A stretch of DNA of 64,000 nt from IMG/VR virus record IMGVR_UViG_3300017783_004014. One strand, given 5' to 3'. Every line of letters starts with the position of its first letter. The first letter of the stretch is position 1. Both the position numbers and the translations under genes were made by a program. Under the pieces are notes generated by a model. That model was not told the origin of the DNA. It did no database searches and saw only the letters and a program-made list of their open reading frames with translations. The DNA comes from a virus. Of the stretch, positions 3,297 through 46,231 are shown piece after piece.

Positions 3297-4379
3297 ATGA
3301 AATGCTATTGGGCAGAACATCATGTTAGTATAGATAGTGAAGGAAAGTTTAGACCTTGTTGCACGTGGCGCAATATGGGCGATGAACCAGAAGTTACTAC
3401 TGTAGAAAAATATTTTGAAAGTGATTTTTATAAGAAATTAAATAAAAATCTCAGTGACAATCTTTGGCCCGAAGGTTGTGAAGACTGTATGGAACAAGAG
3501 TCCATAAAAAAATACAGTATGCGAACTGAAAAAGATGATATTTACGAAGTTAATCCCTTATGGAAAGATGCAGAAATAAAATTTGGTAATTTATGTAATC
3601 TTGGTTGTGTAATGTGTAGTCCTTATAATAGTAGTCTTATACAAGATGAATATATAAAGATGAAAGGACAGCATAAATTGTTTAATAGAACTGTTGACAT
3701 TAAAAGTAATTGGTTTAAAGACGAAGAGAATTTAAGAAGTATTGCTAGATCGTTGAGTGATAGAAATGAACTTCATTTTTCAGGTGGAGAGCCTACTGTG
3801 AATAATTACTTGAGAATTTTTTTAGATGAATTGATCAAAAATAATTGTAATGCTACTCTGCTTATTAGAACTAATGCTAATAATTGGCCAAGCAAAATGC
3901 ACGAACTTATGAAGCAGTTCAAAACAAAAATAAGTATTAGCATAGATGCTCACGGTAATGAAAATGAATATATTAGATGGCCAAGTAAGTGGGATAAAAC
4001 TGAAAGAAATGTGTCTAAAATTCTTTCATTACCTAACACACAAGTTAAATTAAATCCAACAGTAGCCGCATACAATGTTCATTTATTACCTAAACTATAC
4101 GACTGGGCTGTAAATATTGGTATACAAAGATATAACTTTGATAGTGTATACCAGCCATATGTATTTGCAGCAAACCACAGTGAACAATGGCAAAAAGATA
4201 TTTACAAAGACTTTGCAAATAACTATAAACATCCTTTAGGAATTGATTATAACAACGAAGGCCCACACAAAGTTATTAATCATGTAATGAAAAAAGGAAA
4301 AGGTCTACAAGAAGCAATTGACTTTTTGAAAATATTAGACTATAATAGAAAGACAGACTATAAGGTGTTGGGCATATAA
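3297..4379 (+). CDS. Radical SAM protein with N-terminal twitch domain
   Basis: N-terminal C...GKFRPCC...CEDC..SMR; CNLGCVMC; FSGGEP. Confidence 0.9.
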   Translation: MKCYWAEHHVSIDSEGKFRPCCTWRNMGDEPEVTTVEKYFESDFYKKLNKNLSDNLWPEGCEDCMEQESIKKYSMRTEKDDIYEVNPLWKDAEIKFGNLCNLGCVMCSPYNSSLIQDEYIKMKGQHKLFNRTVDIKSNWFKDEENLRSIARSLSDRNELHFSGGEPTVNNYLRIFLDELIKNNCNATLLIRTNANNWPSKMHELMKQFKTKISISIDAHGNENEYIRWPSKWDKTERNVSKILSLPNTQVKLNPTVAAYNVHLLPKLYDWAVNIGIQRYNFDSVYQPYVFAANHSEQWQKDIYKDFANNYKHPLGIDYNNEGPHKVINHVMKKGKGLQEAIDFLKILDYNRKTDYKVLGI

Positions 4380-4397
4380 AAATTATGGAGTGCAAAA

Positions 4398-4679
4398 ATG
4401 AATTATAAAAAAACTGGAGAAAACAGTTGGCTTATTACAGTACAAGAAAACGGTACAACAAAGGAGTTATTTGTAGAATTTCCACCAGATGCACTTGACC
4501 AAGTTGGATGGGATGTTGGCGATACTCTTATATGGGAAGAATTAGATCACGGCGGTTGGAGTGTTAAAAAGAAAAATAAACCTACAAAAGAATATCCTGT
4601 AGATGATGAATTAACCAAAGGCACAAGGATGGATGATGCCTGGTATTACTTTAGGAAAGATGAAAACAATGACAAATAA
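4398..4679 (+). CDS. AbrB/MazE-like small protein
   Basis: LFVEFPPDALDQVGWDVGDTLIW resembles the swapped-hairpin pattern. Confidence 0.5.
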   Translation: MNYKKTGENSWLITVQENGTTKELFVEFPPDALDQVGWDVGDTLIWEELDHGGWSVKKKNKPTKEYPVDDELTKGTRMDDAWYYFRKDENNDK

Positions 4680-5058
4680 TGCTTGGCAACTAACACAAGG
4701 TACCACAATAGATAAACCAGACCCAGAACCAGAACGTTACTATGATTGGATGTTGTGGAAAACAAGACAAGAAAATAAAAAAGAACAAGTTGATGCAAAA
4801 GAAATTCTCAATCAAATGATGTATGTGACAGCAGAAGAATGTGGAGAGCTGGTGCAAGCATGTATGAAAATAGCAAGGTGGGGCATAGATAAAAAGAAAC
4901 ACACCAACTTGTTAGAAGAAGCAGGCGATGTTAAATGTATGCTAGACTTAATGATTGATAATGGTATTTTTACAAAAGAAGAATTAAAAGATGCGGCAAA
5001 ACATAAAAAGAATAAACTAAAACGTTATACGCCGATTATAGTAAAAGGAAATAAGTAA
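4669..5058 (+). CDS. MazG-like nucleotide pyrophosphohydrolase
   Basis: AEECGELVQA...LLEEAGDV acidic helical motif; start placed at ATG 4669 after AGGAAAG. Confidence 0.8.
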   Translation: MTNNAWQLTQGTTIDKPDPEPERYYDWMLWKTRQENKKEQVDAKEILNQMMYVTAEECGELVQACMKIARWGIDKKKHTNLLEEAGDVKCMLDLMIDNGIFTKEELKDAAKHKKNKLKRYTPIIVKGNK

Positions 5059-6443
5059 TGACAAAAGCATTAGTATTGCTTAAAAATGATAGTAAAAAAT
5101 TAAAAAAACGTTTAGGTGCTGAACTTGCAAAGCGTTTAGAATCTGCTACACCAAACAAAGGATTAATTAATCCTAATTATGCACACCCTGACTGGGATTA
5201 TATTACAGTTGCTGATCGTGAGATTACAGATGAGAAATCTGCACGTGAGTTTGGTGGCGATATGTATACAAGATTCAAAGACAAAGTTAAAGAACTTGAA
5301 ATTGATATTGATAGTAAGTTTGTCAATGATATTCAAGAAGGTGTAGCTATGGCTGGATATGTGTTTCAGCGTTATAAAACAGCACCAAATGATCCTAAAA
5401 TTTGGTTTGAAAAAGTAAATGTAGTCGGTGCAGATGATTATGGAATTTATGATGGTATTGAGCTTGCACGTGATTTAGTAAGCGAACCCGGTAACAAGTT
5501 GTTTCCTGCAGAATATGCACGTAGGGCAACAGTAGAACTAACTAATCTAGGAGTAACTGTAAAAGTATATCACGAAGCACAGTTACGAGATATGGGTTTT
5601 AACCTACTTTTAAGCGTTGGACAAGGCTCAACTAAAGATAGTTATGTAGTTGTAATGGAATATATGAATGGTAAGGACGAGCGTCCACTTGCACTAGTAG
5701 GCAAAGGTGTAACGTTTGACACCGGCGGTATTAGCCTAAAGCCAAGCAAAGGTATGGGCGATATGAAATACGACATGGGTGGTAGTGCCGCAGTTGTTGG
5801 TGCTATGCATGCAATTGCAAGCAACAATGTAAAAAGAAACGTAGTTGGTATTATTGGTCTTGTAGAAAACATGCCAGATGGTAATGCAATCAAGCCAGGA
5901 GATGTTGTAAAATCTCTGTCAGGTAAGACTGTAGAAAATCTAAATACAGATGCAGAAGGCAGATTAGTGCTTGCTGATATTTTACATTATGTGCAAGAAG
6001 AATATAATCCAGACACAGTAATTGATCTTGCTACACTCACAGGTGCTATTCTAGTATCGTTAGGTCACGAAATGGCAGGATTGTTTACTAACTCAACTGA
6101 GCTAGAAAAGATTATTGTTGATGCAGGTAAAAAAGCTGGAGAAGGTTTTTATCGTATGCCAATGGGTGAGAATTGGAACAAAATGATTAACAGTGATATT
6201 GCTGATATGCAAAACATTGGTGGTCCATATGGCGGCTCAACTACAGCCGCAGAATTCTTATACAGGTTTGTAGATAATGAACGTGCATTTGCACATTTAG
6301 ATATAGCAGGCATGGCATGGGCAGACACACCAAACTCGGTTACTCCAAAAGGTGCTATGGGATTTGGTGTTCGTACACTTTATAATATTGCTAAAACAAA
6401 AGGTGTACAAGGACTTGCCATTGATGAGGATATGAAATACTGA
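5058..6443 (+). CDS. pepA: Leucyl aminopeptidase (M17)
   Basis: GKGVTFDTGG, MKYDMGG, NTDAEGRL, DLATLTGA, AHLDIAG. Confidence 0.95.
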   Translation: MTKALVLLKNDSKKLKKRLGAELAKRLESATPNKGLINPNYAHPDWDYITVADREITDEKSAREFGGDMYTRFKDKVKELEIDIDSKFVNDIQEGVAMAGYVFQRYKTAPNDPKIWFEKVNVVGADDYGIYDGIELARDLVSEPGNKLFPAEYARRATVELTNLGVTVKVYHEAQLRDMGFNLLLSVGQGSTKDSYVVVMEYMNGKDERPLALVGKGVTFDTGGISLKPSKGMGDMKYDMGGSAAVVGAMHAIASNNVKRNVVGIIGLVENMPDGNAIKPGDVVKSLSGKTVENLNTDAEGRLVLADILHYVQEEYNPDTVIDLATLTGAILVSLGHEMAGLFTNSTELEKIIVDAGKKAGEGFYRMPMGENWNKMINSDIADMQNIGGPYGGSTTAAEFLYRFVDNERAFAHLDIAGMAWADTPNSVTPKGAMGFGVRTLYNIAKTKGVQGLAIDEDMKY

Positions 6444-7213
6444 TGGGAAAAACAATAGCAGTATTTGGATGTGGATTTGTAGGTGGGACAGTTGCTGACT
6501 TTCTTATGGCAAGTGGCATTAATGTAATAAAGATTGACCCTAAGTATTATCCTACAAATGATCCTATGGATGCAATATTTGACAGTGATGGTATTATAAT
6601 TTGTGTTCCAACACCTCCATATTCTGACGGTAGTTGTGACGATAGTATTGTAAAAGAAATATTATCTATGTGTGATTATAGAACTAAAATTTTAGTTAAG
6701 TCAACAGTCACACCTGATAATATTCAACACTACGATACAAATGTAATTTACAATCCAGAGTTTTTACGTGAAGAACATGCACGTGATGATTTTGCAAATC
6801 AAAATGTGCAAATATTTGGACATCATGATCATAATATAGAAGATGCACATTGGTGGGCAGATTTGTTTAGTGAGTGTCATAAACAAGATATAGAAACTAT
6901 TTTTACAAATAGACGAACAGCAAGTATGATCAAGTATACACATAATGCGTTCTTAGCCACAAAGGTAGCATGGTTTCATGAGTTGTATGCAAACTTACCA
7001 CCTGAGGTAGATTACAATACATTAATTAACAGTTTAGGTTGTTTTAAGCGTATAGGCAAAAGTCATATGCAAGCACCTAACAGTCAAGGCAAACTAGGAT
7101 ATGGTGGTGCATGTTTTCCTAAAGACGTAAAAGCCTTGACAAATATACTAGATCATAGTATATTAAAGTATGTTGATAAAGTAAATACTAATTTCGGAGA
7201 GAAAAATGATTAA
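6443..7213 (+). CDS. UDP-glucose/GDP-mannose dehydrogenase-like protein lacking the C-terminal domain
   Basis: GCGFVG Rossmann motif, ICVPTP, KSTV, YNPEFLRE, GYGGACFPKD. Confidence 0.85.
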   Translation: MGKTIAVFGCGFVGGTVADFLMASGINVIKIDPKYYPTNDPMDAIFDSDGIIICVPTPPYSDGSCDDSIVKEILSMCDYRTKILVKSTVTPDNIQHYDTNVIYNPEFLREEHARDDFANQNVQIFGHHDHNIEDAHWWADLFSECHKQDIETIFTNRRTASMIKYTHNAFLATKVAWFHELYANLPPEVDYNTLINSLGCFKRIGKSHMQAPNSQGKLGYGGACFPKDVKALTNILDHSILKYVDKVNTNFGEKND

Positions 7214-8581: not shown

Positions 8582-8684
8582 TAAGTTTAAAGAAATCAAA
8601 TACACACAGGAACAAAAAGAACGTTTAGAAAAGGCTATGAACGCTCCAATAGATCACGAAGCTCTTAGAAAAACGGGATTATGA
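8565..8684 (+). CDS. Small hypothetical protein (39 aa)
   Basis: Fills the gap between queE and the methyltransferase with overlapping start and stop codons. Confidence 0.35.
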   Translation: MPGELDKFKEIKYTQEQKERLEKAMNAPIDHEALRKTGL

Positions 8685-9793: not shown

Positions 9794-9796
9794 TCA

Positions 9797-10135: not shown

Positions 10136-10283
10136 ATATTTTCCTTATATTTTTTGGAGTATGTTAGCAATTGCGCTGGTGCTATCGTTTAAAGCAGCAG
10201 ACGAAATAGAAAATAGACTAACTAGCATAGAAAAAAACTTAGATAAAATGCAATCTGCATTGGAAGAAATGCCAAAAAAATGA
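10128..10283 (+). CDS. Small membrane protein
   Basis: N-terminal hydrophobic segment then a coiled coil; ATG 10128 follows GGAG. Confidence 0.5.
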   Translation: MSKYFPYIFWSMLAIALVLSFKAADEIENRLTSIEKNLDKMQSALEEMPKK

Positions 10284-11245
10284 TAACAGTTGGCATAAAC
10301 GGCTTAGGTAGAATAGGACGATGTGTTACTCGTCATATTATGAACAAGCGAAAAGACATGCAGATTGTGCAAGTAAATGCAACAGGTGGCAGAGATACTA
10401 ACATGCACTTACTCAAATATGATAGTGTACATGGTAGGTACGAAGGCGCAATACATGAGCCCATACTATGGACTGAAGAACGTGATATCGAAAAGATAGA
10501 ATGGAAAAATGTAGATGTTGTATTAGAATGTACAGGTGCATATAACAATGGAATTAAATGTCTAAATCATACTTTTAATGGTGCTAAGAAAGTTGTTATA
10601 AGCGCACCTGCAAAGGAGTGTAAGCGAACGGTTGTATATGGTGTTAATCATCAAGACATAGATAAAAATGATAGAGTTGTAAGCAATGCTAGTTGCACAA
10701 CAAATTGCCTTGCTCCACTTGTTAAAGTAATTGATCAAAACTGTGGAATAGTTGCAGGACAAATGACAACAATACACAGTTACACAGGAGATCAAAGTAC
10801 AATAGATAAAAAGCACAAAGACCCTTACAGAGCAAGAGCAGGCGCAGTAAACATTATACCTACTACAACAGGCGCCGCAAAAGCATTAGATCTTGTGTAT
10901 CCAGAAGTCGCAGGAAAGATTAAAGGTGGAGCAATTAGAGTGCCTACACCTAATGTAAGTTGCATAGATTTAACTTTACAAGTTAGAGACGATGTAAATG
11001 AAGATACTATTAATAATTTTGTTTTAGAAAGCACCAAAAAAGAAATGCGAGGTGTTATAGGATATGAAGAACTGCCACTAGTAAGCAGTGATTTTAATAC
11101 AACTGAGGAAAGTTGTATATTTGCACCAGATCAAACTAGAGTAGTAGGAAACCGTTTAGTTAGGGTAATGGCCTGGTATGATAATGAATGGGCATTTAGT
11201 TGTAGAATGGCAGACATTGCATCAATTATGGGAAAAATGATATGA
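10280..11245 (+). CDS. gap: Glyceraldehyde-3-phosphate dehydrogenase, type I
   Basis: GINGLGRIGR, SNASCTTNCLAP, IIPTTTGAAKA, RVPTPNVS, WYDNEW. Confidence 0.97.
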   Translation: MITVGINGLGRIGRCVTRHIMNKRKDMQIVQVNATGGRDTNMHLLKYDSVHGRYEGAIHEPILWTEERDIEKIEWKNVDVVLECTGAYNNGIKCLNHTFNGAKKVVISAPAKECKRTVVYGVNHQDIDKNDRVVSNASCTTNCLAPLVKVIDQNCGIVAGQMTTIHSYTGDQSTIDKKHKDPYRARAGAVNIIPTTTGAAKALDLVYPEVAGKIKGGAIRVPTPNVSCIDLTLQVRDDVNEDTINNFVLESTKKEMRGVIGYEELPLVSSDFNTTEESCIFAPDQTRVVGNRLVRVMAWYDNEWAFSCRMADIASIMGKMI

Positions 11246-12039
11246 AGAGTTTTATTGCAGCGATGGATCATAGCGGAGGTAGCACAGGAGGTGTGTTAGA
11301 TCGTTATGGTGAAGAATATACAGAAGAAAATAAAATGGAAAAAGTACATGCTATGCGTTTACGTATGGTAAACAGTCCAGATTTTGTAAAAGAAAATATA
11401 TGGGCAGCTATACTGTATAAAGATACAGTTGAACGTGGAATGGTTCCAGTATTAAAGACAAAAGGCATCGAAGCATATTTAAAAATAGACGGTGGTTGTG
11501 AGGACAACGGTTATCTAAAATACTTTCGTTTAAATGAAATGACAGACTTTGCAAAAGAGCATGGCTGTACAGGAACAAAAATGCGTAGTATTGTAAAAGA
11601 TAACAAAGATTTGTCAATGATACTTGACCAACAGTTTGCACTCGCAGAAGGTATACACAGCGAAGGGCTGATGCCTATTGTTGAACCAGAAATACCTATT
11701 GAGCATCCAATGAAATCAAACTACGAATATGAACTTCGTGATCAACTTGCTGAAAGATTAGATGCATTTACAGGCAAGTGTATTTTAAAACTAACATTAC
11801 CCGATCAAGATAACTTTTATAGTAATATTATGAAGCATGATAATGTTTTTAAAGTTGTTGGACTTAGTGGAGGTTACACTACAGAACAGGCATGTAGACG
11901 TTTAGCATGTCAGCTAGGTATGACTGCAAGTTTTTCAAGAGGACTAAGTGAAGGATTGTTTGCTAATCAAACAGAAGATGAATTTAATCAAGCTATTTCA
12001 AAAAATATTACAATGATTAGAGATGCAGGTAATGTCTGA
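11242..12039 (+). CDS. fda: Fructose-bisphosphate aldolase, class I (bacterial Fda type)
   Basis: FIAAMDHSGGS, GTKMRS, MPIVEPEI, LKLTLP, VVGLSGGY, ASFSRGL. Confidence 0.9.
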   Translation: MKSFIAAMDHSGGSTGGVLDRYGEEYTEENKMEKVHAMRLRMVNSPDFVKENIWAAILYKDTVERGMVPVLKTKGIEAYLKIDGGCEDNGYLKYFRLNEMTDFAKEHGCTGTKMRSIVKDNKDLSMILDQQFALAEGIHSEGLMPIVEPEIPIEHPMKSNYEYELRDQLAERLDAFTGKCILKLTLPDQDNFYSNIMKHDNVFKVVGLSGGYTTEQACRRLACQLGMTASFSRGLSEGLFANQTEDEFNQAISKNITMIRDAGNV

Positions 12040-13024
12040 AAATAGAATAGCATGTTTTGGTAGTAGCCACACAGAAGGTGGCACTGGATGGGAGTCGGGT
12101 AAAGAGTTTATGAACAGTTGGCCCGGACAACTATACAGTAGGCTAGAGAATACTGATGTTCTTAATGTAGGACAAAGCAGTTTCAGTATTGACTTTTGGC
12201 CAACTAAGATTTATAATGTTATTAATTACTACAACCCAACACATATTATATGTGAGATCAATATTAAAGAAAAACTTGACTTTGAAGTAAGCCCAGACTT
12301 AACTGGACAAAGTTGTCTTGATAGTCCTCATGGATATCATCCACTGTTGACTAGACAAAATGTTCGCAGTCCTAAAACAGACTCTTCATATATCCCTACA
12401 GAAAATTGGCCAAATAGATCGAGTGTAAGTCCACAAGAAGCAATTGAATATTACAATGCATATCATCAAATCACTGAAAGCATGGATAAAGATCATTGGA
12501 AAGATAATTTGCCTATTATGATAAATGAAATGTATTTAGATGCAGCTCACAGTGGAATAATTACAGATTATGAAAGACATGTTGTAGCAGAAAAATTACA
12601 AGGCATAATAGATAGTATGGGTAACAAAGATGGAGACATTGAAATGTTTCTCAACTATCTTTATTTCCGTGCAGTATATGAAACAGACAGCGACACAAAC
12701 ATTGCTTATTACTTACAAAATATTAATGCTATGAGAATGATTTGTGCAGAAAATAATATTAAATTTAAAGCATACACAATGCATTGGCAACCAAATGTAT
12801 ATGAAAGTCTTATCTACAAAGAGAATTATGAAACACTCTTAAAAGATATATGGTTGTTTGACGATGTAAAATATAATGTAAAATGGTGGATCAAGGATAG
12901 ATTCGGTGTAGATAAATGGCGGGAACAATTATGTGATAGTATACATTTCAAAGCAGAAACATATGGTATATGGTGCGAAGAGATGTTGATCCCGTATTTA
13001 AAGAAAGAATGGAATATTTCGTAA
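12032..13024 (+). CDS. SGNH/GDSL-like protein
   Basis: IACFGSSHTEG block I, VLNVGQ block II, C-terminal DSIH. Confidence 0.55.
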   Translation: MSENRIACFGSSHTEGGTGWESGKEFMNSWPGQLYSRLENTDVLNVGQSSFSIDFWPTKIYNVINYYNPTHIICEINIKEKLDFEVSPDLTGQSCLDSPHGYHPLLTRQNVRSPKTDSSYIPTENWPNRSSVSPQEAIEYYNAYHQITESMDKDHWKDNLPIMINEMYLDAAHSGIITDYERHVVAEKLQGIIDSMGNKDGDIEMFLNYLYFRAVYETDSDTNIAYYLQNINAMRMICAENNIKFKAYTMHWQPNVYESLIYKENYETLLKDIWLFDDVKYNVKWWIKDRFGVDKWREQLCDSIHFKAETYGIWCEEMLIPYLKKEWNIS

Positions 13025-13419
13025 TGTCAAAACTTAAACATTGGGAAGAAGAGTTTAGTTTTCTAGATGATGATGATAGATTAATGCACTTGATCGATTT
13101 AGCAAAAAAAGAAACTAACTTACCTGAAACTTTACGTACCAAAGATAGATTAGTCAATGGATGTATGAGTCAAATATGGATAGATGTTGGCGTAAAAGAA
13201 GATATAGTAAAAGTATATTATGATAGCGATGCAATGATTACAAAAGGTATTACTATGGTAGTAGCAGATTGTTATAGTGATATAACAATAGATGAAGCAA
13301 AACAAATTACAAAAGCAGATTTTGAAAAGCTAGGCATTAAAGAATTACTTTCTGCACAACGTAGAAACGGATTAGGTAATCTTATAGATACCATAAGAAC
13401 AAAGGTCAATAGGCTATGA
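13024..13419 (+). CDS. sufE: Fe-S cluster assembly sulfur acceptor SufE
   Basis: LVNGCMSQIW, DSDAMITKG, LLSAQRRNGL. Confidence 0.9.
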   Translation: MSKLKHWEEEFSFLDDDDRLMHLIDLAKKETNLPETLRTKDRLVNGCMSQIWIDVGVKEDIVKVYYDSDAMITKGITMVVADCYSDITIDEAKQITKADFEKLGIKELLSAQRRNGLGNLIDTIRTKVNRL

Positions 13420-14609: not shown

Positions 14610-14623
14610 AGGAAAAGCAGATA

Positions 14624-16987: not shown

Positions 16988-16988
16988 A

Positions 16989-21084: not shown

Positions 21085-21099
21085 TTAGGAAAACATATT

Positions 21100-32034: not shown

Positions 32035-32060
32035 GATAAATATTAACACAAGTATTTATA
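32035..32060. promoter_or_regulatory. Face-to-face late-promoter-like motifs serving divergent genes
   Basis: GATAAATA on + (32035-32042) and TATAAATA on - (32053-32060); direct repeat TATACTAAGA at 32027 and 32057. Confidence 0.5.
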
Positions 32061-32074
32061 CTAAGAGGATATCT

Positions 32075-35617: not shown

Positions 35618-36842
35618 ATTAAAAGAGAGCAACACATTCTGTATGCTACCGTTTATGCACATTTATGGAAGTGCAGGAGGAGATATGGTTCCTTGTTGCG
35701 AAGCACAAGAAGAGCCGCTCAACAATCCTGGCGAAACTGCAATAGAAAGCTGGAACAATAACAACTATAGAGAACTTAGACAATCACTAGCAGAAGGCCA
35801 AAGACATCCAAGATGTGGAGTTTGCTGGCACAACGAAGATGCTGGAATTGTTAGCAACAGGCAACAATGGGATTACGATAACTGGAAAGACTTTGCTGAT
35901 AAAATAGCTGTAAACAGCGATTACAGCGTCAACAACCCGCCTTACTGGGTAGAGCTTAAAGTGAGTAACTTTTGCAATTTAAAGTGCATTATGTGTAGCA
36001 CACACAGCTCTTACAAGCGTGTAAAGGACTTGGATATTATTACTAAGTATACCACTGATGGATACGAAACCCGCTTGCTGCGCCCTACAACGCTGTTTGA
36101 GAGCCTAAATACATGGCCTGATCTATGGGATACAGTTCATACACTACAGTTTACAGGTGGCGAACCTATTATCAATCAAGAACACTATGATTTGTTAGCA
36201 GGTATTCCAGATAGCGTAAAAGCAAATATTAAATTACGTTATGCAAGTAATCTAAGTTATATAAAATTTAAGAAATACGACCTTGTTGATATATGGAGCA
36301 AATTTAAACATGTAAATATAAAAGTAAGCATGGACGGTATAAATGATGTATACAATTATATTAGACAAGATGGCAATTGGGATACAGTATATGAAAACAT
36401 GTGTATACTAAACGATATACCAACAATTGATGTTGCAGCAGGAATAACAGTACAAGCACACAACATATTTCAAATGCCAGAGTTTTATGACTTCTGGAAA
36501 CAAAGTAATGTAAATCTTTCTTTTATTACTGCAAATATATTACAAACGCCACGTTATCTAAGTCCTGCATTATGGCATGGAAAATACAGAGATGCAATTA
36601 TTGAAAAGTTACGTGCTGCAGAACATATACATCCTGAAATGAATAGATTTGCAACATATATGGAAAACACAGAACGCAACATGCGTGACTATGCAAAAAT
36701 GAGAAAATATACAAGAGATATTGAGCAACGCTATAATCCACAAATAAAATTAAAAGAGATGGTAAAGCGTTATTTAAAAATAGATTTAGAAAATATGACA
36801 GAGGTCAATAGGCTTCTAGAAGAGAAAGGGCCAGTAGATTGA
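35601..36842 (+). CDS. N-terminal-twitch radical SAM protein (RS5)
   Basis: FCMLPF..VPCC..RCGVC..SNR; CNLKCIMC; FTGGEP. Confidence 0.92.
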   Translation: MIDKYKLKESNTFCMLPFMHIYGSAGGDMVPCCEAQEEPLNNPGETAIESWNNNNYRELRQSLAEGQRHPRCGVCWHNEDAGIVSNRQQWDYDNWKDFADKIAVNSDYSVNNPPYWVELKVSNFCNLKCIMCSTHSSYKRVKDLDIITKYTTDGYETRLLRPTTLFESLNTWPDLWDTVHTLQFTGGEPIINQEHYDLLAGIPDSVKANIKLRYASNLSYIKFKKYDLVDIWSKFKHVNIKVSMDGINDVYNYIRQDGNWDTVYENMCILNDIPTIDVAAGITVQAHNIFQMPEFYDFWKQSNVNLSFITANILQTPRYLSPALWHGKYRDAIIEKLRAAEHIHPEMNRFATYMENTERNMRDYAKMRKYTRDIEQRYNPQIKLKEMVKRYLKIDLENMTEVNRLLEEKGPVD

Positions 36843-38314
36843 ATCAAGGACAAAAAAGTTGGGAGTATTCTCACAAATCATCAACAAACAAAATTGTGCA
36901 TGTATTTTCACCAAAGAGTAAATGTTTGCTTGACAAACCAAGGCTGAAACAAAAACTGCAACAAATTCAACAAGTAGAATCCAATAATCATTTACAAGGT
37001 AGTGTAATCAATACATTCAACGAAGGTGATATGAGTTGGCTAGAAAATGCTATTTCGATGCATTATGAATATGCAGTATTTTGGTTTGATGGATGCTGGG
37101 CAATTACAGAAGATTTTGAAGAAATACTAGAAAGAGAAATAAAAGAATGGAACGAAATAGATAGTAACTGGACTGTTGCAGGAGAGCTTAGACAAGAAGA
37201 AGGAGCATATCCAACTCTTAATCATAACTTTATAATTATTAATTTAAGAAAGTGGGCTTTGAATGAAAAAATACATCCAGTAAATGAAATCACTGAATTA
37301 CGTGATTTTGAAGCAATAGATTTAGGATGGGACACAGGCAACCTATTACAACTTAACCCAGTAGAAGGTCATGTAAGTCATTTTGAAAGAAATCAAGAAC
37401 GTGAAATTAGACGTTACGAAAGAGAAATAGGTAAGTTTCCTTTTGTAAGTTGGTTAGCATGGTGTATTGATAATCATATTGTTGTATATGGTATAAGCGA
37501 TGAATTGTTTGATGCAACGGTTTATGTTAATCCTTTTATGAATACTGAACAGTTTGAACTAGGAATAATGGGCGAGTCTTATGACAGAGATCAAGTAAGT
37601 AGAAAAGGCAAATATGTTATTGATAAACTAATGAAACCAAGTAGTCCTGTGTATTTTGTAAACACAGAAGAGTCTAGTCCTACAGTTATAGATAAACTAT
37701 TAGAAACCGAGTTTGAACAATACATAGGCGCTACAGCGGGTTTTAAGCTACTGTACTACGCACACAAGTACGGTATTAATCCTGGCTTTACAGACTTCAT
37801 ATGGTTTGACTTTGACCCCGATAGCTGTAATTTTAAGCGTGAGACATTAAAGCAATGGGATGGACAAAATTATCCAGCATGGGTAGATGATTGGTGCCAA
37901 AGAAATCCGCAGGCCAATTTAGATTTGCAACCTTTAGTTAAACAAAAATGGTGGGGTGTTCTTCATCAATTTGGTGGAAAAAATAAATTCCAAGATTTTT
38001 GGACACAAGTAAGTTTTAGCGACCATACTGTAATAGAATGTGATATAATTAGTAACAATAAATTGTTATTTGACAAAGTGCAAAACAAACGTAGTTTTAT
38101 GTGGACAAGTAATATTTACAGCTATATATTACCTAATTTAAAAGAAAGCGTAGAAGATATAAATTCTAGTTTTATGGATATGGTTTCACAACTAAAATCA
38201 ACTCACCAAGATACATGGTTCTGTGGAACTGATACGCAAGACAATGATATTATGTGTCCTGTAAAGGATATTACCAGTGCTACTGATAATAGTAGTTTAG
38301 GTCAAGAACAATGA
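36839..38314 (+). CDS. Unknown family paralog 1 (possible SAM-binding fold at C terminus)
   Basis: Shares FW(F/Y)xG, YxxNT, ATAG/PASG, WxDF, WxG, (S/T)NIY motifs with the next two ORFs. Confidence 0.6.
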   Translation: MNQGQKSWEYSHKSSTNKIVHVFSPKSKCLLDKPRLKQKLQQIQQVESNNHLQGSVINTFNEGDMSWLENAISMHYEYAVFWFDGCWAITEDFEEILEREIKEWNEIDSNWTVAGELRQEEGAYPTLNHNFIIINLRKWALNEKIHPVNEITELRDFEAIDLGWDTGNLLQLNPVEGHVSHFERNQEREIRRYEREIGKFPFVSWLAWCIDNHIVVYGISDELFDATVYVNPFMNTEQFELGIMGESYDRDQVSRKGKYVIDKLMKPSSPVYFVNTEESSPTVIDKLLETEFEQYIGATAGFKLLYYAHKYGINPGFTDFIWFDFDPDSCNFKRETLKQWDGQNYPAWVDDWCQRNPQANLDLQPLVKQKWWGVLHQFGGKNKFQDFWTQVSFSDHTVIECDIISNNKLLFDKVQNKRSFMWTSNIYSYILPNLKESVEDINSSFMDMVSQLKSTHQDTWFCGTDTQDNDIMCPVKDITSATDNSSLGQEQ

Positions 38315-39750
38315 TACATGCAGACTTAAGACTAAGTTCTCAAGAAGAAAATCCTTTTGTTCATGTTGTAACAGATCAGCAGATGCATCCTAACATTGAA
38401 AATAATGAGTATGTTAGAATATTAAAAAAAGTTTTAAACATCAGTCTGACAAATCATGTTCATGGTTCTATTTGCACAATGTATGGTGCAATCAATAGTA
38501 GAGACTTTGAAGAACTTACTAAAAGGTTTAAAAAAGATGGATACAAATATGTTTGTTTTTGGTTTGAGGGAAGTCAGCCAATGGAAGGATTTGAAGAAGC
38601 CTTTTTAGAGTTTTGCGAGGAATGTGACGACTGGCAAGTTATGGGACATATTTTAAATAGAAGACTTCCTGTGTTTCACGAACAGGTTGTTGTATTGAAT
38701 TTACAAAATATAGATCATATTAATTTTGATTTAGTTGATGGAGAAGATTATCCAAGATATTTTCAAAGCGATGAACACATACACGATGACTATACACCAA
38801 TGTGGATTAAAGGAAATCATGCTGATGGCTGGTTTAATTATGAACAGGAAGTTTCTGATGAGTTTAATAACTTTTTTGATCATTTTTTATATAATTGTTT
38901 ACAATTTGGATATGAGATTCTAAATTTTCCTGAAGAAATTAGAAGTGTTAAATTTTGTGTGTATCCAGAAGATGATGTTGAACACACACTAGACTGGTTA
39001 ATTAATCCAGACTTTCATGCAAAAAGCTATGAAGAAAAATCACAATATAAATTTGATGAAGTTCCACATGATAAGTGGATGCTTTATGAATTTTTAAATA
39101 TGAGTAATGAGATCCTTTACGTAACCAATACAGAAGATTATCCTGATGAAAAAGCTGTTGCTACAGCAAAAGATACAAATATAATTATTTGTCCTGCAAG
39201 TGGATTAAATCAATTTTTGTTTGCAATGCCTCACATAGAAACACTTGAAAAAATTATTTGGGCAGATTTTAATCCACTGAGTATACGTTGGTTAAAGTAT
39301 ATAATAGACGAATGGGATGGGAAAAACTTTAGAGATTTTTTTGAAAATAGTAAACCTCTTTTACTCACATGGGGATTAAAAGATTTAGAATTTTTAAACT
39401 ATAGAGAGAAACAAGTAGATGAACTTACAGAAATGTTTAACAGTAGTAGAATTAATAAAATGTATAATCGTCTTAGACAAATAGAACATGTGTTTTTAAA
39501 CATAGATATTGTTAATCAATACGATCAAATATTACCACATGCTGTTAACGGTAATGTCATTTTGCAAGTAAGTAATATTTACAGTTATGAAATAAATTAT
39601 ATCACTAACAAATATTATAAAGCACAACAAGAGTTTTATGGCTTAGTAAATGGATTACTTGAAAATAATTTTAATGTTTACTTTAGAGGAGATACACCTC
39701 AAGGAACATATTATGAAATGACAAACATAGGAAAGATAGGTAGCTTATGA
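38311..39750 (+). CDS. Unknown family paralog 2
   Basis: GHIL..PVFHEQ, HDDYTPMWI, YVTNTE, PASGLNQF, WADFNP, SNIYSYE, YFRGDTP. Confidence 0.65.
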   Translation: MIHADLRLSSQEENPFVHVVTDQQMHPNIENNEYVRILKKVLNISLTNHVHGSICTMYGAINSRDFEELTKRFKKDGYKYVCFWFEGSQPMEGFEEAFLEFCEECDDWQVMGHILNRRLPVFHEQVVVLNLQNIDHINFDLVDGEDYPRYFQSDEHIHDDYTPMWIKGNHADGWFNYEQEVSDEFNNFFDHFLYNCLQFGYEILNFPEEIRSVKFCVYPEDDVEHTLDWLINPDFHAKSYEEKSQYKFDEVPHDKWMLYEFLNMSNEILYVTNTEDYPDEKAVATAKDTNIIICPASGLNQFLFAMPHIETLEKIIWADFNPLSIRWLKYIIDEWDGKNFRDFFENSKPLLLTWGLKDLEFLNYREKQVDELTEMFNSSRINKMYNRLRQIEHVFLNIDIVNQYDQILPHAVNGNVILQVSNIYSYEINYITNKYYKAQQEFYGLVNGLLENNFNVYFRGDTPQGTYYEMTNIGKIGSL

Positions 39751-41162
39751 GATTTAATTTAGAACTTTCAACATCGCCAGAATACGGTCGTATAGTTCAT
39801 GTACTAACTAAAGATGATCTTTTACAGGGTATAGAAAATAACGAATACATGAGAATACTTAAAACAGTAACACACAATTCACTTGTAAACACTGCTGATG
39901 GATCATTGTTAGAATGGCATGCTGGAATGCACGAACCTAATCATTTTAATTATCTAGTTAGATATATGAAACAATTAAATTTTGAATATATGTTTCTCTG
40001 GTATGAAGGTAATAAAGTCGAACATGGAATAGAAGATGCATTTTTAGAATGGACAAAATATAGATCAGCAGACTGGACTATGATGGGACATATACTTTAT
40101 AGAAAAGGAAGATGTCCTGTATTTCACGAACAATGTGTTGTTATCAATCTTAAAAATATCAATGAGGATACTAACTTAATATACTTTGATGAAGAAAATG
40201 CAGACTTCGTTGCTAGTAAAGAAAATGTACATGATGACTATACACCTTTGTGGATAAAGTCTGCTCCTGGTAGTCATAACAGAGAAAAAAGATCTAAGAG
40301 TATTTTAGATACTATCATGTGGAATTTACTTAGTCAAGGTCATACAGTGGTTAACGTGCCACACAGTATGCGTGACTTAAAATTTTGTCCATATGCTGAT
40401 GAGGATCAGGAAGAAACAGTAGCATGGTTGCTAGACGACAATCTAAGCAAAATGACATTAGAAGAAGGTTTTGAACTCTGGGACAAAATTGGCGAAGATA
40501 AAGAGATACTTGCTGAGTGTATATTACAAAAAGATGTAGTCTATGTTACAAACACAGATGATACTGAGGTAATGTTTCAACCAGATGTAGATACACTTAT
40601 TGGACCAGCTAGTGGACTTAATCAATTTATGTATGCTGTATTGAATATTAAAACTATTAAAAGAATGGTATGGACTGATTTTAGTCCACTTGCTATATGG
40701 TGGACAAAATATATTTTAGAAAATTGGAATGGTAGAGACTTTAGAGACTTTTGGTTTGCCCATAAACATAAACTGGAACAACGAGCAAACGATCCAAAAC
40801 TAATAGAAGTAAATTTTGACAAATTAGATACGCTGAATGATTATTTTAATGAACTAGATGATTCTATGTGGACAACAATACAAAGTTTAGATCATGTATT
40901 TTTAGAAATAGACTTGATCAAAGATTATCATAAGGTATTAGACGTAGTAAAAGACTCTAATGTTTTCATGCAAATGACAAATATCTACATGTATGAAGCT
41001 AATTTTATTTTTAATAAATACCATAAAGTATTTGAATCTTTTTATAGTTTCTTAAACAAAATGGTAAGTGCTAATAAGAATGTATATTTTATTGGCGACA
41101 CACCGCATGGTAGGAAATACAGATATGAGCCTATTAATTTAAATAGAGTAGATAAAATTTAG
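39747..41162 (+). CDS. Unknown family paralog 3
   Basis: GHIL..PVFHEQ, HDDYTPLWI, YVTNTD, PASGLNQF, WTDFSP, TNIYMYE, YFIGDTP. Confidence 0.65.
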   Translation: MRFNLELSTSPEYGRIVHVLTKDDLLQGIENNEYMRILKTVTHNSLVNTADGSLLEWHAGMHEPNHFNYLVRYMKQLNFEYMFLWYEGNKVEHGIEDAFLEWTKYRSADWTMMGHILYRKGRCPVFHEQCVVINLKNINEDTNLIYFDEENADFVASKENVHDDYTPLWIKSAPGSHNREKRSKSILDTIMWNLLSQGHTVVNVPHSMRDLKFCPYADEDQEETVAWLLDDNLSKMTLEEGFELWDKIGEDKEILAECILQKDVVYVTNTDDTEVMFQPDVDTLIGPASGLNQFMYAVLNIKTIKRMVWTDFSPLAIWWTKYILENWNGRDFRDFWFAHKHKLEQRANDPKLIEVNFDKLDTLNDYFNELDDSMWTTIQSLDHVFLEIDLIKDYHKVLDVVKDSNVFMQMTNIYMYEANFIFNKYHKVFESFYSFLNKMVSANKNVYFIGDTPHGRKYRYEPINLNRVDKI

Positions 41163-41172
41163 GAGAAAATAA

Positions 41173-41916
41173 ATGTGGGTAGACCAAGGACCAGTACATT
41201 ATCCAATAGAGGTAAATGAAAGAACTAGAAAATTCTTTGAAGAAAATGAATTCAAAGAACAAAAGTTATCTGGATTAGACAAAGGCTTGTTATATGATGA
41301 GCATGACCCTAACAAAGTTATTGACAATACATTATTACCGTGGATACCTGTGCCCATTGAAGTGCCGCACAAGGAAATACTAGAAGAATCTATGCATTTA
41401 CTTGATACAGGATGTTTTACAGCTCACAGACCTGATAGTAGTGGTTGGTTGAGTATATGTATACATGGTATGAGTAGTGTACATACAAACTGTCCTGAGG
41501 ACTATAACATGCCAGACGAAATGGAAGATGAACTTAGCACATGGACTGATATTGCACGTTACTGTCCACGTACAGTTGAGTGGATGAAAGATACAGTATG
41601 CTATGAAAAATATACTAGAGTTAGATATATGGCAGTATTGCCAGATGGTTGGCTAATGCCACATGTAGATAGACAACGTTTTACTGGTGTAGGTGCAACT
41701 AATGTTGCAATTAATAATCCCGAAGGCTGTAAGTTGGTAATGAAAGACTGGGGAGAAATGCCTTTTGATCCTGGCAAGATGTTTAAGATTAATACTGGAT
41801 ACGAACATGCGGTATGGAACAGATCAGATGAGCCTCGCATTCATATGATTTTTGATGGTGACATGGGCGACTACTTTAAAAGCAAAGTATTGGAAGGTTA
41901 CAAACCTTATGCCTAA
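41173..41916 (+). CDS. Aspartyl/asparaginyl beta-hydroxylase-like 2OG-Fe(II) oxygenase
   Basis: RVRYM..LMPHVD, INTGYEHAVWN.SDEPRIHMIFD. Confidence 0.85.
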   Translation: MWVDQGPVHYPIEVNERTRKFFEENEFKEQKLSGLDKGLLYDEHDPNKVIDNTLLPWIPVPIEVPHKEILEESMHLLDTGCFTAHRPDSSGWLSICIHGMSSVHTNCPEDYNMPDEMEDELSTWTDIARYCPRTVEWMKDTVCYEKYTRVRYMAVLPDGWLMPHVDRQRFTGVGATNVAINNPEGCKLVMKDWGEMPFDPGKMFKINTGYEHAVWNRSDEPRIHMIFDGDMGDYFKSKVLEGYKPYA

Positions 41917-42973
41917 GTGTCTAATGTTTGATCATGGATTAACAATTAATCCTAGAGGAAAAGTTAGACCTTGTTGTGTATACGACAATGCTGACATCAA
42001 TTTCAAAATTGATGAAGAAGAAAAGTGGAGACCGTATTTTAAACAACAAGGCAAAGAAATGGAATCCGGAGATTGGATTGCTGAATGCGAAGAATGTAAA
42101 CTAGAAGAACACACTCTGGGCAGAAGTTTGAGAACAAGATCTCTTGACCTTTATGACAACAGAGATGATTTGACAGGAATAGGCTATTGGGATTTAAAAA
42201 TTAGTAATACATGTAATTTATGGTGTAGAATGTGTAGCGGTGGAGATAGTAGCACATGGGTTAAAAACATCAAACAAAATCCCAATCATAAGTGGGCAAA
42301 GCATTTACTAGGACATGACGAGCATAGAAATACATGGCATGATACTTATCTACCTTCTGTTAAAGAAAAAATTATACATGCTGAGACAGTAAAATTTACA
42401 GGTGGAGAACCTATGCTTGTGAAACATGTAAAACAAGTTATACAACATTTAATTGATACTGAATTTAGTTATAACATTGAATTATTAATAACAACAAACG
42501 GAACTGTTCCATTTACAGGTTGGTGGCAAGATATTATTCCAAAATTTAAATTTGTAAACATTACATTAAGCATAGATGGAATTGGTGACAGATTTGAATA
42601 TCAGAGAGCAAATGCAAGTTGGAAAGAAGTTGCATACAATTCACGAGTATTAGCAAAAAAAGTGAACATATATGATAATTTATTTGTTGGTATTAATTAT
42701 ACAAATACTGCTATCAATGCCGCATGTAAAAAAGATACAGAAAAATGGGCAAAGGAACAAGGAATATATTTTAACCAAGGTGGAGTAGAAGTATTACAAC
42801 CTGGATATATGAGTTATAAAAGTTTACCAAATCATTTGAGAGAAAGATTTGGTGTTAAAGGATATCATGATTTTGATCCTAAAATGTTAGAAATGTTAAA
42901 AAAACAAATGTCAATTATGGACAAAATACAGGGCACAAGTTTTGAAAATACTTGCCCAGAATTTTTTGAATAG
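41909..42973 (+). CDS. N-terminal-twitch radical SAM protein (RS6)
   Basis: KC..GKVRPCC..ECEEC..SLR; CNLWCRMC; FTGGEP. Confidence 0.9.
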   Translation: MPKCLMFDHGLTINPRGKVRPCCVYDNADINFKIDEEEKWRPYFKQQGKEMESGDWIAECEECKLEEHTLGRSLRTRSLDLYDNRDDLTGIGYWDLKISNTCNLWCRMCSGGDSSTWVKNIKQNPNHKWAKHLLGHDEHRNTWHDTYLPSVKEKIIHAETVKFTGGEPMLVKHVKQVIQHLIDTEFSYNIELLITTNGTVPFTGWWQDIIPKFKFVNITLSIDGIGDRFEYQRANASWKEVAYNSRVLAKKVNIYDNLFVGINYTNTAINAACKKDTEKWAKEQGIYFNQGGVEVLQPGYMSYKSLPNHLRERFGVKGYHDFDPKMLEMLKKQMSIMDKIQGTSFENTCPEFFE

Positions 42974-42982
42974 GAAATTAAA

Positions 42983-43888
42983 ATGAATTACGGAGAATTT
43001 GAAACTAGTGGGAACAGCATATGGAATCAACCTTTCTTTGATCACTTGGAAGAAAACTATTTTTCCAACGTTCCACTTGATGGAATGCAACAAGAAGCAG
43101 ATGAGTTTCTCAACATATATCCAGAATGGATATTATCAAGTAAAATGAATAAATTTACAGGCTTTGATAAATTACCATATCGATTTGTAAGTCTAGGAAC
43201 TACACAAGCAATGGACTGGTGGCACTATTGGACTATGTCAGAAGGTAGACGTCTGAGAATGTACAAGGGAGAATATCCTTACAACAGAGATGTGCTATTA
43301 GAAGAAGAGTGGATGAACATACGTTATATTGACGAAACACCACTTGCTCCTGGTGACAGTGTAATTATAAGTTTTCCATTCAGTGGCACAGGTGGTAAAC
43401 ATTCAGAAATGGAAAAAATGTTTGATTTATGCGACGAAATGGATATTCCTGTGTTTGTTGATTGTGCATGGTTCGGAACGTGTTATGACTTAGAAGGAGA
43501 TCTTAACAGAGATTGTATCAAAATGATTGCATTTAGCACAACAAAAGGTTTAAGCTGTGGCAATTGGCGTAGCGGAATTGTGTTTAGTAGACTTGATGTA
43601 GGATCTTTGAGTGTGCAAACAGAATGGCATCATGGTATACATTTAAATGTATCATTGGCAAATTGTTTATTCAAAGAATTTTCTCCAGATACAGTTCCAA
43701 AAAAGTTTAAAGTTTCACAACATGCGGTATGTGAACATTATGGGCTGGAACCTACTAGCACTATTCATATTGCACAAGCACCTAAAACAGATGAATGGAA
43801 TCACTTTGCTAGAGATGGTGCATATAATAGAGTAAATATAAGGAAGGCCGTAAAAAGATATAAATCAACTGGGGAATTTAGCCACTAA
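42983..43888 (+). CDS. Fold-type I PLP-dependent enzyme (aminotransferase or decarboxylase)
   Basis: LGTTQA, GEYPY, IISFPFSGTG, VFVDCAW (PLP Asp), FSTTKG (Schiff-base Lys). Confidence 0.7.
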   Translation: MNYGEFETSGNSIWNQPFFDHLEENYFSNVPLDGMQQEADEFLNIYPEWILSSKMNKFTGFDKLPYRFVSLGTTQAMDWWHYWTMSEGRRLRMYKGEYPYNRDVLLEEEWMNIRYIDETPLAPGDSVIISFPFSGTGGKHSEMEKMFDLCDEMDIPVFVDCAWFGTCYDLEGDLNRDCIKMIAFSTTKGLSCGNWRSGIVFSRLDVGSLSVQTEWHHGIHLNVSLANCLFKEFSPDTVPKKFKVSQHAVCEHYGLEPTSTIHIAQAPKTDEWNHFARDGAYNRVNIRKAVKRYKSTGEFSH

Positions 43889-45105
43889 TGAAAACAACTA
43901 AACCATTACCAAGTAAAACATTTTGCGTTTTACCTTTTATGCATATTGCTACAAATCCTGGCGGTAGTTATAGATTATGTTGTAATAGCAATCCAAATAA
44001 CAATCAGATCAAAGATGAAAACGGAAAACCATTTAAAATTTTTAAACATGATGTAGAAGAAGTCTGGAATAGCGAACATTATAAAAAAATTCGCAAGCAA
44101 TTTATTGATGGCGAAATGCCTAGCACATGTGAAAGATGTTACAGAGAAGAAGATTCGGGAATTCGTAGTCCACGTGCAGGTTTTAATGAAAAATGGTGGA
44201 CAGATGATGTTATTGTTGCAGAAGATATTCCAGTTGATATTCGCTACATTGATTTGCGTTTAGGTAACTTATGTAATTTAAAATGCCGTATGTGTAATCC
44301 TTGGGCTAGCAGTATGTGGGTAAAAGATTGGAATGAAGTAGTTCCTACAGCAAAACTTGCTCCATCTGATCCTATAAATGATGACACACTTGCGTACATG
44401 AAAGTTATGACTGAATGGCCAGACTATAAAAAAACAGAACTAAACTTTCAAGATATTTCACATACTGTTGAAGAAATATATCTTACAGGTGGTGAGCCAA
44501 CACTAGCAGTATCTCAATATAAATTACTAGACTATTGCATTGAAAATAATTTAGCAAAAAATATTAGATTGAAGTATAACACTAATTTGACAAATATTCC
44601 TCCTAAAATGATAGAATACTGGGCAGACTTTAAACGTGTTCAATTAAACTGTTCTATTGATGCAGTAGGCGAACGTGATAGATATATTAGATATCCAAGC
44701 AATTGGAAAAAAGTAGAACAAAATTTTGATGCTCTAAGTAAATTACCAAACGTTAATATTCAAATACACTGTACAGTTCAAGCTCTAAATATTTGTGTAT
44801 TACATGAATTATTAGATTTTGCTGGTAGTAGAGGCTTAGAAGGAGATCAAGTATATCTTAATATTCTTAATCATCCTAGTTGTTTAAACATTAGAGTGCT
44901 TCCTATGGAACTAAAAAATATGGCTGCAAACAGTCTTGCTGAATATTTTCATTGGCCAAAAGTTGAAGATACAATCAAATATATGTTTGCAGAAGATTGG
45001 CATGAAAAACATTGGGAAGAATTTAAAGCATACAATCTTAAAACTGATACACTTCAAAAAATGAATTTGTTAGAAACTTGTAAGGAATTTAATAGTTTTG
45101 TCTAG
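43888..45105 (+). CDS. N-terminal-twitch radical SAM protein (RS7)
   Basis: FCVLPF..GSYRLCC..TCERC..SPR; CNLKCRMC; LTGGEP. Confidence 0.92.
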   Translation: MKTTKPLPSKTFCVLPFMHIATNPGGSYRLCCNSNPNNNQIKDENGKPFKIFKHDVEEVWNSEHYKKIRKQFIDGEMPSTCERCYREEDSGIRSPRAGFNEKWWTDDVIVAEDIPVDIRYIDLRLGNLCNLKCRMCNPWASSMWVKDWNEVVPTAKLAPSDPINDDTLAYMKVMTEWPDYKKTELNFQDISHTVEEIYLTGGEPTLAVSQYKLLDYCIENNLAKNIRLKYNTNLTNIPPKMIEYWADFKRVQLNCSIDAVGERDRYIRYPSNWKKVEQNFDALSKLPNVNIQIHCTVQALNICVLHELLDFAGSRGLEGDQVYLNILNHPSCLNIRVLPMELKNMAANSLAEYFHWPKVEDTIKYMFAEDWHEKHWEEFKAYNLKTDTLQKMNLLETCKEFNSFV

Positions 45106-46231
45106 ATGTACTAGTATAAAAAATCAGTTCTTTTTTGATCCTGATGGACTTAACACATACTGTTGTGAAAGTGTTCCACCTGGTACGCCAGAACGAAAAC
45201 AATTTAAACTTCAAGATTGGGATGCAAAACGTACATACGAACTAGACTTATATGAAAAAAGTAAACAAGGATGGCTAGAAGAATGTTTGCTTTGTAAACG
45301 CAATGAAGACAGAGATGGCGAAAGTATGAGAACTAGGATTAACGCAGACCACGATGAACAAGATAATGATTATATACAAAGTGCTATCATAAAAACAAGT
45401 AATCATTGTAATATGGGATGCAGAATGTGTGAGCCAAGTTTAAGCACGTTTTGGCAAAGAGTTGTTAAGAAAAATCCTAGTAAAGAATTCAATGCGGGCA
45501 AATATCAATTAGATGAACCTACAGATAATGATATGGAAATACTCAAAGATAAAGTTTTTACAGAACATCTACATAACATTGTTTTCAGTGGCGGTGAAAG
45601 TTTACTCAGTAAAAAGAATTATCAAATTATTGAACACTTGTTAGAGACAGGACATTGCAAAAACATTGCATTACACATCACTACAAACGGTAGTGTTAAA
45701 ATAAAAGACGCATGGCTTGATGCAAGTAAACACTTTAAACAGTTTACAATGGAGTTTAGTATCGATGGTGGTGGACATGTGTATGAATATATTAGACCAG
45801 GATCCAGTTGGGACACTCTAGTAGATGTAATCAATTATACAAAGAATGTAGCACCAGATACAGAATGGTTGTTTAACTATGTTGCTCAAGCGTTAAATGC
45901 ACATCACATGGATGAAGATGAGCGTATGGTAATGGGATTATTTGATGGGGTTAAACTTATTGATCCAGAATGGGCAGATCATCTAAGTATATGTTATCAA
46001 ATGCCAGAGGATAGTTATGTTGTAGTGCATCCCAAACTAAGAGAAAAATATGGTATTGGTTATTGGACAGAAGATTTTGATTTTTGCGAAGAGACTTTTG
46101 CAAAATTTATGCGTAAAATGGCATGGCTAGATAAAGCACATGGAACCAGTTTAGAAAAACTTAATCCGGACTTTTTTGATACAAACATTTATTCAAAGGA
46201 AAAAATTAATGAATATTATCGCAACAGGTAA
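45098..46231 (+). CDS. N-terminal-twitch radical SAM protein (RS8)
   Basis: RC..TYCC..ECLLC..SMR; CNMGCRMC; FSGGE. Confidence 0.88.
   Translation: MSRCTSIKNQFFFDPDGLNTYCCESVPPGTPERKQFKLQDWDAKRTYELDLYEKSKQGWLEECLLCKRNEDRDGESMRTRINADHDEQDNDYIQSAIIKTSNHCNMGCRMCEPSLSTFWQRVVKKNPSKEFNAGKYQLDEPTDNDMEILKDKVFTEHLHNIVFSGGESLLSKKNYQIIEHLLETGHCKNIALHITTNGSVKIKDAWLDASKHFKQFTMEFSIDGGGHVYEYIRPGSSWDTLVDVINYTKNVAPDTEWLFNYVAQALNAHHMDEDERMVMGLFDGVKLIDPEWADHLSICYQMPEDSYVVVHPKLREKYGIGYWTEDFDFCEETFAKFMRKMAWLDKAHGTSLEKLNPDFFDTNIYSKEKINEYYRNR

Follow-up and report, generated by a model that had tools for sequence, protein, structure and literature searches.

The 64,000-nucleotide stretch of viral DNA analyzed here (IMG/VR record IMGVR_UViG_3300017783_004014, referred to as the window) encodes nine radical S-adenosylmethionine (SAM) enzymes of the family N_Twi_rSAM, in which a twitch-type domain predicted to hold an auxiliary iron-sulfur (Fe-S) cluster precedes the radical SAM core. 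The original prediction for this DNA, made from the sequence alone, had named the family, and a search with the NCBIfam hidden Markov models (HMMs) confirmed it: all nine proteins exceed the curated 170-bit cutoff of model NF033640, with scores of 173.7-407.6 bits and matches that run from end to end. Chance is ruled out by the E-values, which range from 6.5e-51 to 5.8e-122. NF033640 was the only model whose cutoff was passed, and none of the copies matches a characterized family, the other NCBIfam radical SAM models reaching 15-47 bits against cutoffs of 130-850. A search of the literature found neither a characterized member of N_Twi_rSAM nor a paper on the family. The window copies share the N-terminal Cys pattern and the radical SAM core of NF033640 and show no family-level difference from it; judged by these matches, the nine genes are new, intact members of a catalogued but uncharacterized family.

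All nine open reading frames (ORFs) are open from the predicted starts and lie on the + strand; each copy is designated below by its start position. The first (3297-4379, 360 residues, 234.8 bits against NF033640; C3, CC21-22, C61xxC64 and C100xxxC104xxC107) stands apart from the rest, as had been observed, adjoining a thymidine kinase and a MazG-like gene, with the next copy 22.6 kb downstream. That second copy (27009-28430, 473 residues, 407.6 bits) represents the most conserved subfamily and is followed by those at 29000-30271 (423 residues, 293.0 bits), 33139-34383 (414 residues, 245.1 bits; a three-Cys variant with a Pfam SPASM match of 40.1 bits at residues 15-77), 34376-35617 (413 residues, 217.5 bits) and 35601-36842 (413 residues, 311.7 bits; viral orthologues up to 78% identical). 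The remaining three are located at 41909-42973 (354 residues, 214.7 bits), where the ATG start could instead be 41852/41855 as in the JGI gene call; at 43888-45105 (405 residues, 381.6 bits), the copy used for the structure model; and at 45098-46231 (377 residues, 173.7 bits), which begins with TTG, barely passes the cutoff and is the most divergent, its nearest relative in the window being the 41909 copy at 31% identity.

The Cys motifs listed in the original prediction are present. An N-terminal Cys is followed 17-18 residues on by a CC pair (eight of the nine copies), then by CxxC and by SxR; the 33139 copy alone lacks the CC, as had been claimed, reading C...CxxC, and its SxR, in the form SRR, is off by one residue. 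In all nine, the CxxxCxxC motif and a Ser that is conserved (S141, numbered as in the 43888 copy) come after the N-terminal Cys motif, and the invariant columns, in the same numbering, are C13, C81, C84, C129, C133, C136, S141 and G201-G202-E203, the last being the GGE motif that binds SAM. Pairwise identity among the copies is 20-34%. A profile built from the nine, run against all six-frame ORFs of the window, found no tenth copy, whole or degenerate; only the radical SAM gene at 46757-47941, which is of another kind, was weakly matched (26.7 bits).

Position of the auxiliary domain

SPASM and twitch domains are by the usual definition C-terminal extensions of the radical SAM barrel (PMC9012708). 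The claim that the auxiliary-cluster domain is N-terminal in the window proteins agrees with Pfam, which places SPASM (PF13186) within residues 3-99 of five copies, above the gathering score in three of these, and ahead of Radical_SAM (PF04055), whose match begins at residue 94-148 in the same five. Radical_SAM is placed mid-protein in every copy and passes its gathering score in eight of the nine, with the 27009 copy at 26.6 against 29.5. Read from these profile matches, the domain order of N_Twi_rSAM is the reverse of the usual SPASM/twitch order. The N-terminal domain is predicted to be a one-cluster twitch, not a full SPASM domain, because it offers only four Cys positions, with no further Cys after the CxxC and no seven-Cys CX2CX5CX3C motif; the number of clusters is itself a prediction.

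In the structure model of the 43888 copy, the core has its best structural match in BlsE, tied with SkfB and anSME, and the N-terminal domain of the model lies outside the match. BlsE is a sugar-nucleoside decarboxylase. The auxiliary domains of BlsE, SkfB and anSME come after the barrel, whereas that of N_Twi_rSAM comes before it. The match puts the modeled core in the SPASM/twitch branch of the superfamily but says nothing for sugar over peptide substrates or the reverse; since decarboxylation (BlsE), thioether formation (SkfB) and formylglycine formation (anSME) are tied, no function can be transferred. Foldseek searches with the N_Twi model returned only low TM scores (for radical SAM enzymes, 0.30-0.40), which the permuted domain order would lead one to expect.

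Occurrence and age of the family

When the nine-copy profile was searched against 1.84 billion representative proteins, the family comprised 7,745 clusters at 50% identity (E <= 1e-30). Some database proteins of about 770-1,400 residues contain two full N_Twi units in tandem and represent either real fusions or read-through of overlapping genes. In whole-record searches, the two nearest phage contigs carry 9-10 copies above the cutoff and 50 further IMG/VR contigs carry 2-14 each, including 14 on a 328-kb contig with terminal repeats and 10 on a 457-kb contig. The expansion singled out by the original prediction is therefore real, in that nine divergent copies are present, but it is not special, nine copies being usual in this phage lineage. 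Nishimura et al. (PMC5332604) mention in passing a T4-like marine viral genome that has 12 radical SAM genes.

Cultured phages also carry the family: Ralstonia phage RsoM2USA has two copies above the cutoff, Vibrio phage K566 has two above and three below it, and KVP40 has sub-threshold relatives only. At 134159-137161 in KVP40, two of its N_Twi-like genes adjoin a QueC-like gene and one of the phosphoribosyltransferase type (PF04095), a gene context unlike that of the window; a third lies elsewhere in its genome. A megablast comparison of the window cluster with cultured phages gave no match.

A scan of prokaryotes, with one genome per species and the 80 best matches looked at, returned mostly metagenome-assembled genomes (MAGs) of Bdellovibrionota, many of the matches lying on megabase contigs. 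At least one copy over the cutoff was present in 45 of 201 sampled Bdellovibrionota genomes; five genomes examined in full hold 7-20 copies each, often in tandem arrays, and 14 model organisms have none. The 27009 copy has orthologues of 55-65% identity in Bdellovibrionota and other genome-collection contigs. One Bdellovibrionota cassette (L087) is chromosomal, because it is flanked by rpoD and a Ser/Thr kinase gene on a 916-kb contig. The description of the family in the original prediction as known mainly from uncultured marine sequences fits the marine phage contigs but leaves out the Bdellovibrionota chromosomes and the cultured phages RsoM2USA and K566.

Other bacterial assignments are of two kinds. 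A 1.27-Mb contig labelled Candidatus Parcubacteria (L098, CAWFCE010000002.1) contains six N_Twi copies within 17 kb, and as this is a megabase contig assigned to the candidate phyla radiation (CPR), the family also occurs outside Bdellovibrionota and phages. Four short contigs of 13-108 kb (L084, L085, L104 and L107), binned into MAGs of Crocinitomicaceae, Gammaproteobacteria, Rickettsiales and Neisseriaceae, may be misbinned phage sequence; among them are the closest nominally bacterial homologues of the 43888 copy (L084 and L085, 49-52% identical) and of the 27009 copy (L084 and L107, 65%).

To place the copies relative to one another, a tree was built of 316 N_Twi proteins, drawn from the window and from 80 IMG/VR loci that surround orthologues of its 43888 copy. 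Seven window copies form clades of their own, with orthologues in 7-66 other viral loci and no second window copy in any of them, so that the paralogs do fall into ortholog groups across phages, a point the original prediction had raised for checking. The 27009 clade has 78 members from 66 loci, the 33139 clade 46 from 35, the 35601 clade 41 from 36 and the 43888 clade 39 from 39; the 41909 clade is smaller (9 members, 8 loci), and that of the 3297 copy has seven viral orthologues. For the 45098 copy, these loci yielded no separate clade of orthologues. The suggestion of old duplications is backed by the 20-34% identity together with the separate orthologue clades, which also rule out recent near-identical duplication. 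On these measures the copies diverged long ago and are under selection. They may also differ in substrate, as the original prediction suggested. The auxiliary Cys residues are kept in 276-308 of the 316 homologues, and the radical SAM Cys residues likewise in nearly all.

The missing CC pair of the 33139 copy recurs among its orthologues, where Asp replaces the first Cys of the pair in 15 of 46 clade members. This loss, itself conserved, suggests a three-Cys or Asp-ligated auxiliary cluster resembling that of MoaA, whose twitch cluster has three Cys ligands and binds substrate at an open iron (PMC9012708). The likeness lies in the three auxiliary Cys of the 33139 copy and of these 15 members; it differs in that the MoaA model scores about 30 bits against a cutoff of 284, in that the Asp present here in place of Cys could be a ligand, and in that the window offers no molybdenum-cofactor context.

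In a combined tree of viral and Bdellovibrionota proteins, the 27009, 43888, 34376, 35601 and 33139 subfamilies each mix sequences from both sources (support 0.80-0.99); for the 29000 subfamily the mixing is less clear. Divergence of the paralogues therefore predates the sharing of the gene set between phages and predators.

Partner genes and candidate functions

The cluster at 27009-48159 is tightly packed, with neighbors that overlap or abut as in a single operon. Between the second and third copies lies an MtnN-like nucleosidase gene (28432-29010, +; PNP_UDP_1, Pfam PF01048, 50.5 bits), whose product could clear 5'-deoxyadenosine or methylthioadenosine (MTA). The block is interrupted at 30260-31988 by two unnamed genes on the - strand (302 and 276 residues) that have no Pfam, NCBIfam or PHROG match; the one at 31158 also has no match among PDB sequences, and its homologues occur in the Bdellovibrionota cassettes L091 and L133. 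Next to them, an amidinotransferase homologue (32075-33139, +) matches the PDB sequences of HsvA (4.9e-22), StrB1, an inosamine-phosphate amidinotransferase (2.5e-20), and SxtG (2.6e-15), and has 46% identical orthologues in Bdellovibrionota cassettes.

Three tandem paralogues of about 480 residues (36839-41162, +) combine a GT-A glycosyltransferase-like N-terminal domain with a C-terminal domain like those of class I SAM methyltransferases. Likeness to the PBCV-1 capsid glycosyltransferase (PDB 2p6w), part of the chlorovirus glycan machinery, is at the level of the fold only; radical SAM enzymes are not known to be part of that machinery. These genes are followed by one for an Asp/Arg-hydroxylase-type protein, similar to 2-oxoglutarate (2OG) oxygenases (41173-41916, +; Pfam PF05118, 43.5 bits), whose homologues were found in 30 viral loci and in 8 from genome collections. 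A 722-residue ORF at L091:14993-17161 fuses a homologue of the 480-residue paralogues to an Asp/Arg-hydroxylase-type segment like the 41173 protein.

The gene at 42983-43888 (+) encodes a probable pyridoxal phosphate (PLP) aminotransferase-like enzyme: PF00155 occurs on 17-27% of the members of its Atlas feature neighbors, D160 and S185-x-x-K188 are invariant in 24 homologues, and its profile weakly matches the aminotransferase 3if2 (E 0.0046). Beyond the last N_Twi copy lies a short-chain dehydrogenase/reductase (SDR; 46209-46772, +), for which a 20-homologue profile matches PDB SDRs at 8.4e-11, with S91, Y104 and K108 invariant. The adjacent 46757-47941 (+) encodes a tenth radical SAM enzyme, of conventional domain order (Pfam PF04055 51.1 bits; NF033640 only 45.7 bits), with Cys 50/54/57 and a C-terminal four-Cys tail at 319/341/362/367. 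Its orthologues in Bdellovibrionota (57-63% identical) adjoin 27009-type genes (55-60% identical), which suggests that the two form a conserved core pair. Single-sequence searches of the 42983, 38311 and 46757 proteins against PDB sequences returned nothing useful.

The same partner families recur in the Bdellovibrionota cassettes L087, L091, L133 and L094, so that a conserved cassette is common to phages and these bacteria; a carbamoyltransferase and an asparagine synthase are present in Bdellovibrionota loci L094 and L110. Upstream of the cluster, the window encodes SufE for Fe-S supply (12970-13419, +; Pfam PF02657, 102 bits), the S-adenosylmethionine synthetase MetK (14624-15733, +; three of three Pfam S-AdoMet_synt domains) and a phosphomannomutase-like protein for sugar-phosphate supply (17695-18408, +; Pfam PF03332, 78.1 bits). 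Genes for glyceraldehyde-3-phosphate dehydrogenase (GAPDH), an aldolase-like protein and phosphoenolpyruvate carboxykinase (PEPCK) lie within 10280-14609, and a short gene (256 residues) resembling UDP-glucose/GDP-mannose dehydrogenases lies at 6443-7213; together with the phosphomannomutase they form a phage-borne set for sugar-phosphate supply.

From this gene context we tentatively propose that the copies may well carry out a multi-step radical tailoring of a carbohydrate-type substrate. We lean to this reading because all partners that can be named handle small molecules or sugars and because the window supplies SAM, Fe-S and hexose phosphate. In the catalytic steps, substrate class and product that we infer, each copy would most likely perform one distinct radical step. 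The cluster held by CxxxCxxC would cleave SAM, and the resulting 5'-deoxyadenosyl radical would take a hydrogen atom from the substrate. The substrate radical would in turn pass an electron to the N-terminal auxiliary [4Fe-4S] cluster; the role of electron acceptor has been proposed for the auxiliary cluster of BtrN and shown for that of SuiB (PMC9012708). The ligands of the N-terminal cluster would be four Cys in eight copies and three in the 33139 copy, with a possible open iron site or Asp ligand. The most likely substrate would be a nucleotide sugar, a cyclitol or a growing glycan, which the cassette partners would oxidize or reduce (the SDR and the 2OG-oxygenase-like protein), transaminate, amidinate, glycosylate and methylate. 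The phage itself would provide SAM through MetK, Fe-S through SufE, by-product clearance through the MtnN-like nucleosidase, and hexose phosphate through the phosphomannomutase and the gluconeogenic enzymes.

A more far-reaching version of this proposal, conceivable but in our judgment doubtful, is that marine jumbo phages and Bdellovibrionota have in common an ancient, oxygen-independent "radical glycan-editing" pathway. Each subfamily would perform a different, undescribed radical transformation of a sugar, and together they would yield a methylated glycan with amino or guanidino substituents on the surface of the virion or the predator; enzymes with the N-terminal twitch would form an architectural class new among radical SAM enzymes and bring several new chemistries.

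Whatever the substrate, the interest lies in the family itself, which is huge (about 7,700 clusters at 50% identity, with no characterized member found), permuted in architecture, and divided into conserved subfamilies found both in jumbo phages and in predatory bacteria. In all studied SPASM/twitch enzymes the auxiliary Fe-S domain is encoded on the other side of the barrel, and in both ocean jumbo phages and Bdellovibrionota, two different killers of bacteria, a carrier genome has 2-20 members of the family. The individually conserved subfamilies imply several distinct chemistries to be assigned, the common cassette implies a product useful to both lifestyles, and the cultured carriers RsoM2USA and K566 bring the question within reach of the bench.

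Several of the same partner genes would also suit a free soluble metabolite, such as a guanidino- or amino-cyclitol or an aminoglycoside-like compound directed against host, prey or competitors, with the N_Twi enzymes acting as BtrN-like dehydrogenases that feed the aminotransferase and the amidinotransferase. The amidinotransferase is closest to HsvA, to StrB1 of the streptomycin pathway and to SxtG, the aminotransferase-like gene and the SDR are adjacent, and a carbamoyltransferase occurs in a Bdellovibrionota cassette. BtrN offers a precedent, being a twitch enzyme with four Cys ligands whose oxidation of an aminocyclitol precedes a transamination (PMC9012708); the window resembles it in the four-Cys auxiliary [4Fe-4S] cluster predicted beside the radical SAM cluster and in the adjoining aminotransferase-like gene. 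However, the twitch domain of BtrN is C-terminal and that of N_Twi_rSAM N-terminal, no specific sequence relationship between them is detectable, and BtrN is absent among the matches listed by Foldseek and VIA-align. No cyclitol synthase, export or resistance gene was recognized, and the three glycosyltransferase-like proteins and the phosphomannomutase suit the assembly of a polymer or glycoconjugate at least equally well. We consider a soluble metabolite, which would be a close variant of the main proposal, unlikely.

Maturation of a protein or peptide, giving a RiPP-like (a peptide made by the ribosome and modified after translation) product or a modified virion protein, would match the activity of most SPASM/twitch radical SAM enzymes, and the core fold and weak HMM similarity do point toward SkfB, SuiB, anSME, CteB, PapB and HxsB/C. 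HxsB/C mature an HxS-repeat protein (PMC13128918), but the window copies reach only 15-23 bits against the TIGR03978 and TIGR03977 cutoffs of 370 and 268, and a search of every frame of the 64-kb window found no HxS or CHxS repeats and no RGRR or poly-Ser tails, though a substrate gene could lie beyond the window. Nor does the window cluster have intergenic gaps or space for small ORFs; the small ORFs that Bdellovibrionota L110 has upstream of its tandem array of six copies are not precursor-like, and every partner that can be named is a small-molecule enzyme. On this evidence peptide maturation is quite improbable.

Very improbable is a nucleotide or nucleic acid substrate, as in DNA hypermodification or in a synthesis of modified nucleotides like that by viperin, MoaA or QueE: the copies do show weak similarity to models of prokaryotic viperin, MoaA and QueE, the 3297 copy adjoins the thymidine kinase and MazG-like genes, and the sub-threshold KVP40 relatives adjoin a QueC-like gene, but the similarity is that of the generic radical SAM core, far under every curated cutoff, and the main cluster has no nucleotide-metabolism genes.

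Phage setting of the window

The window belongs to an uncultured marine jumbo phage. Besides the thymidine kinase and the MazG-like protein, it contains many ORFs without a family match. Gene direction and GC skew change sign at a strand switch near 48100, beyond which replication genes lie on the - strand. Downstream of this point is a T4-type clamp loader (58359-59285, -) that is 52% identical to that of the Pseudomonas jumbo phage PA5oct. Genes identical to those of the window were found on JGI marine metagenome contigs. The closest IMG/VR contigs measure 109-127 kb at a CheckV completeness of 30-35%, from which a genome of about 350 kb follows. Near the outlying 3297 copy, the window also encodes a 747-residue subtilase (Peptidase_S8, 12-2255) and an M17 leucyl aminopeptidase (5058-6443).

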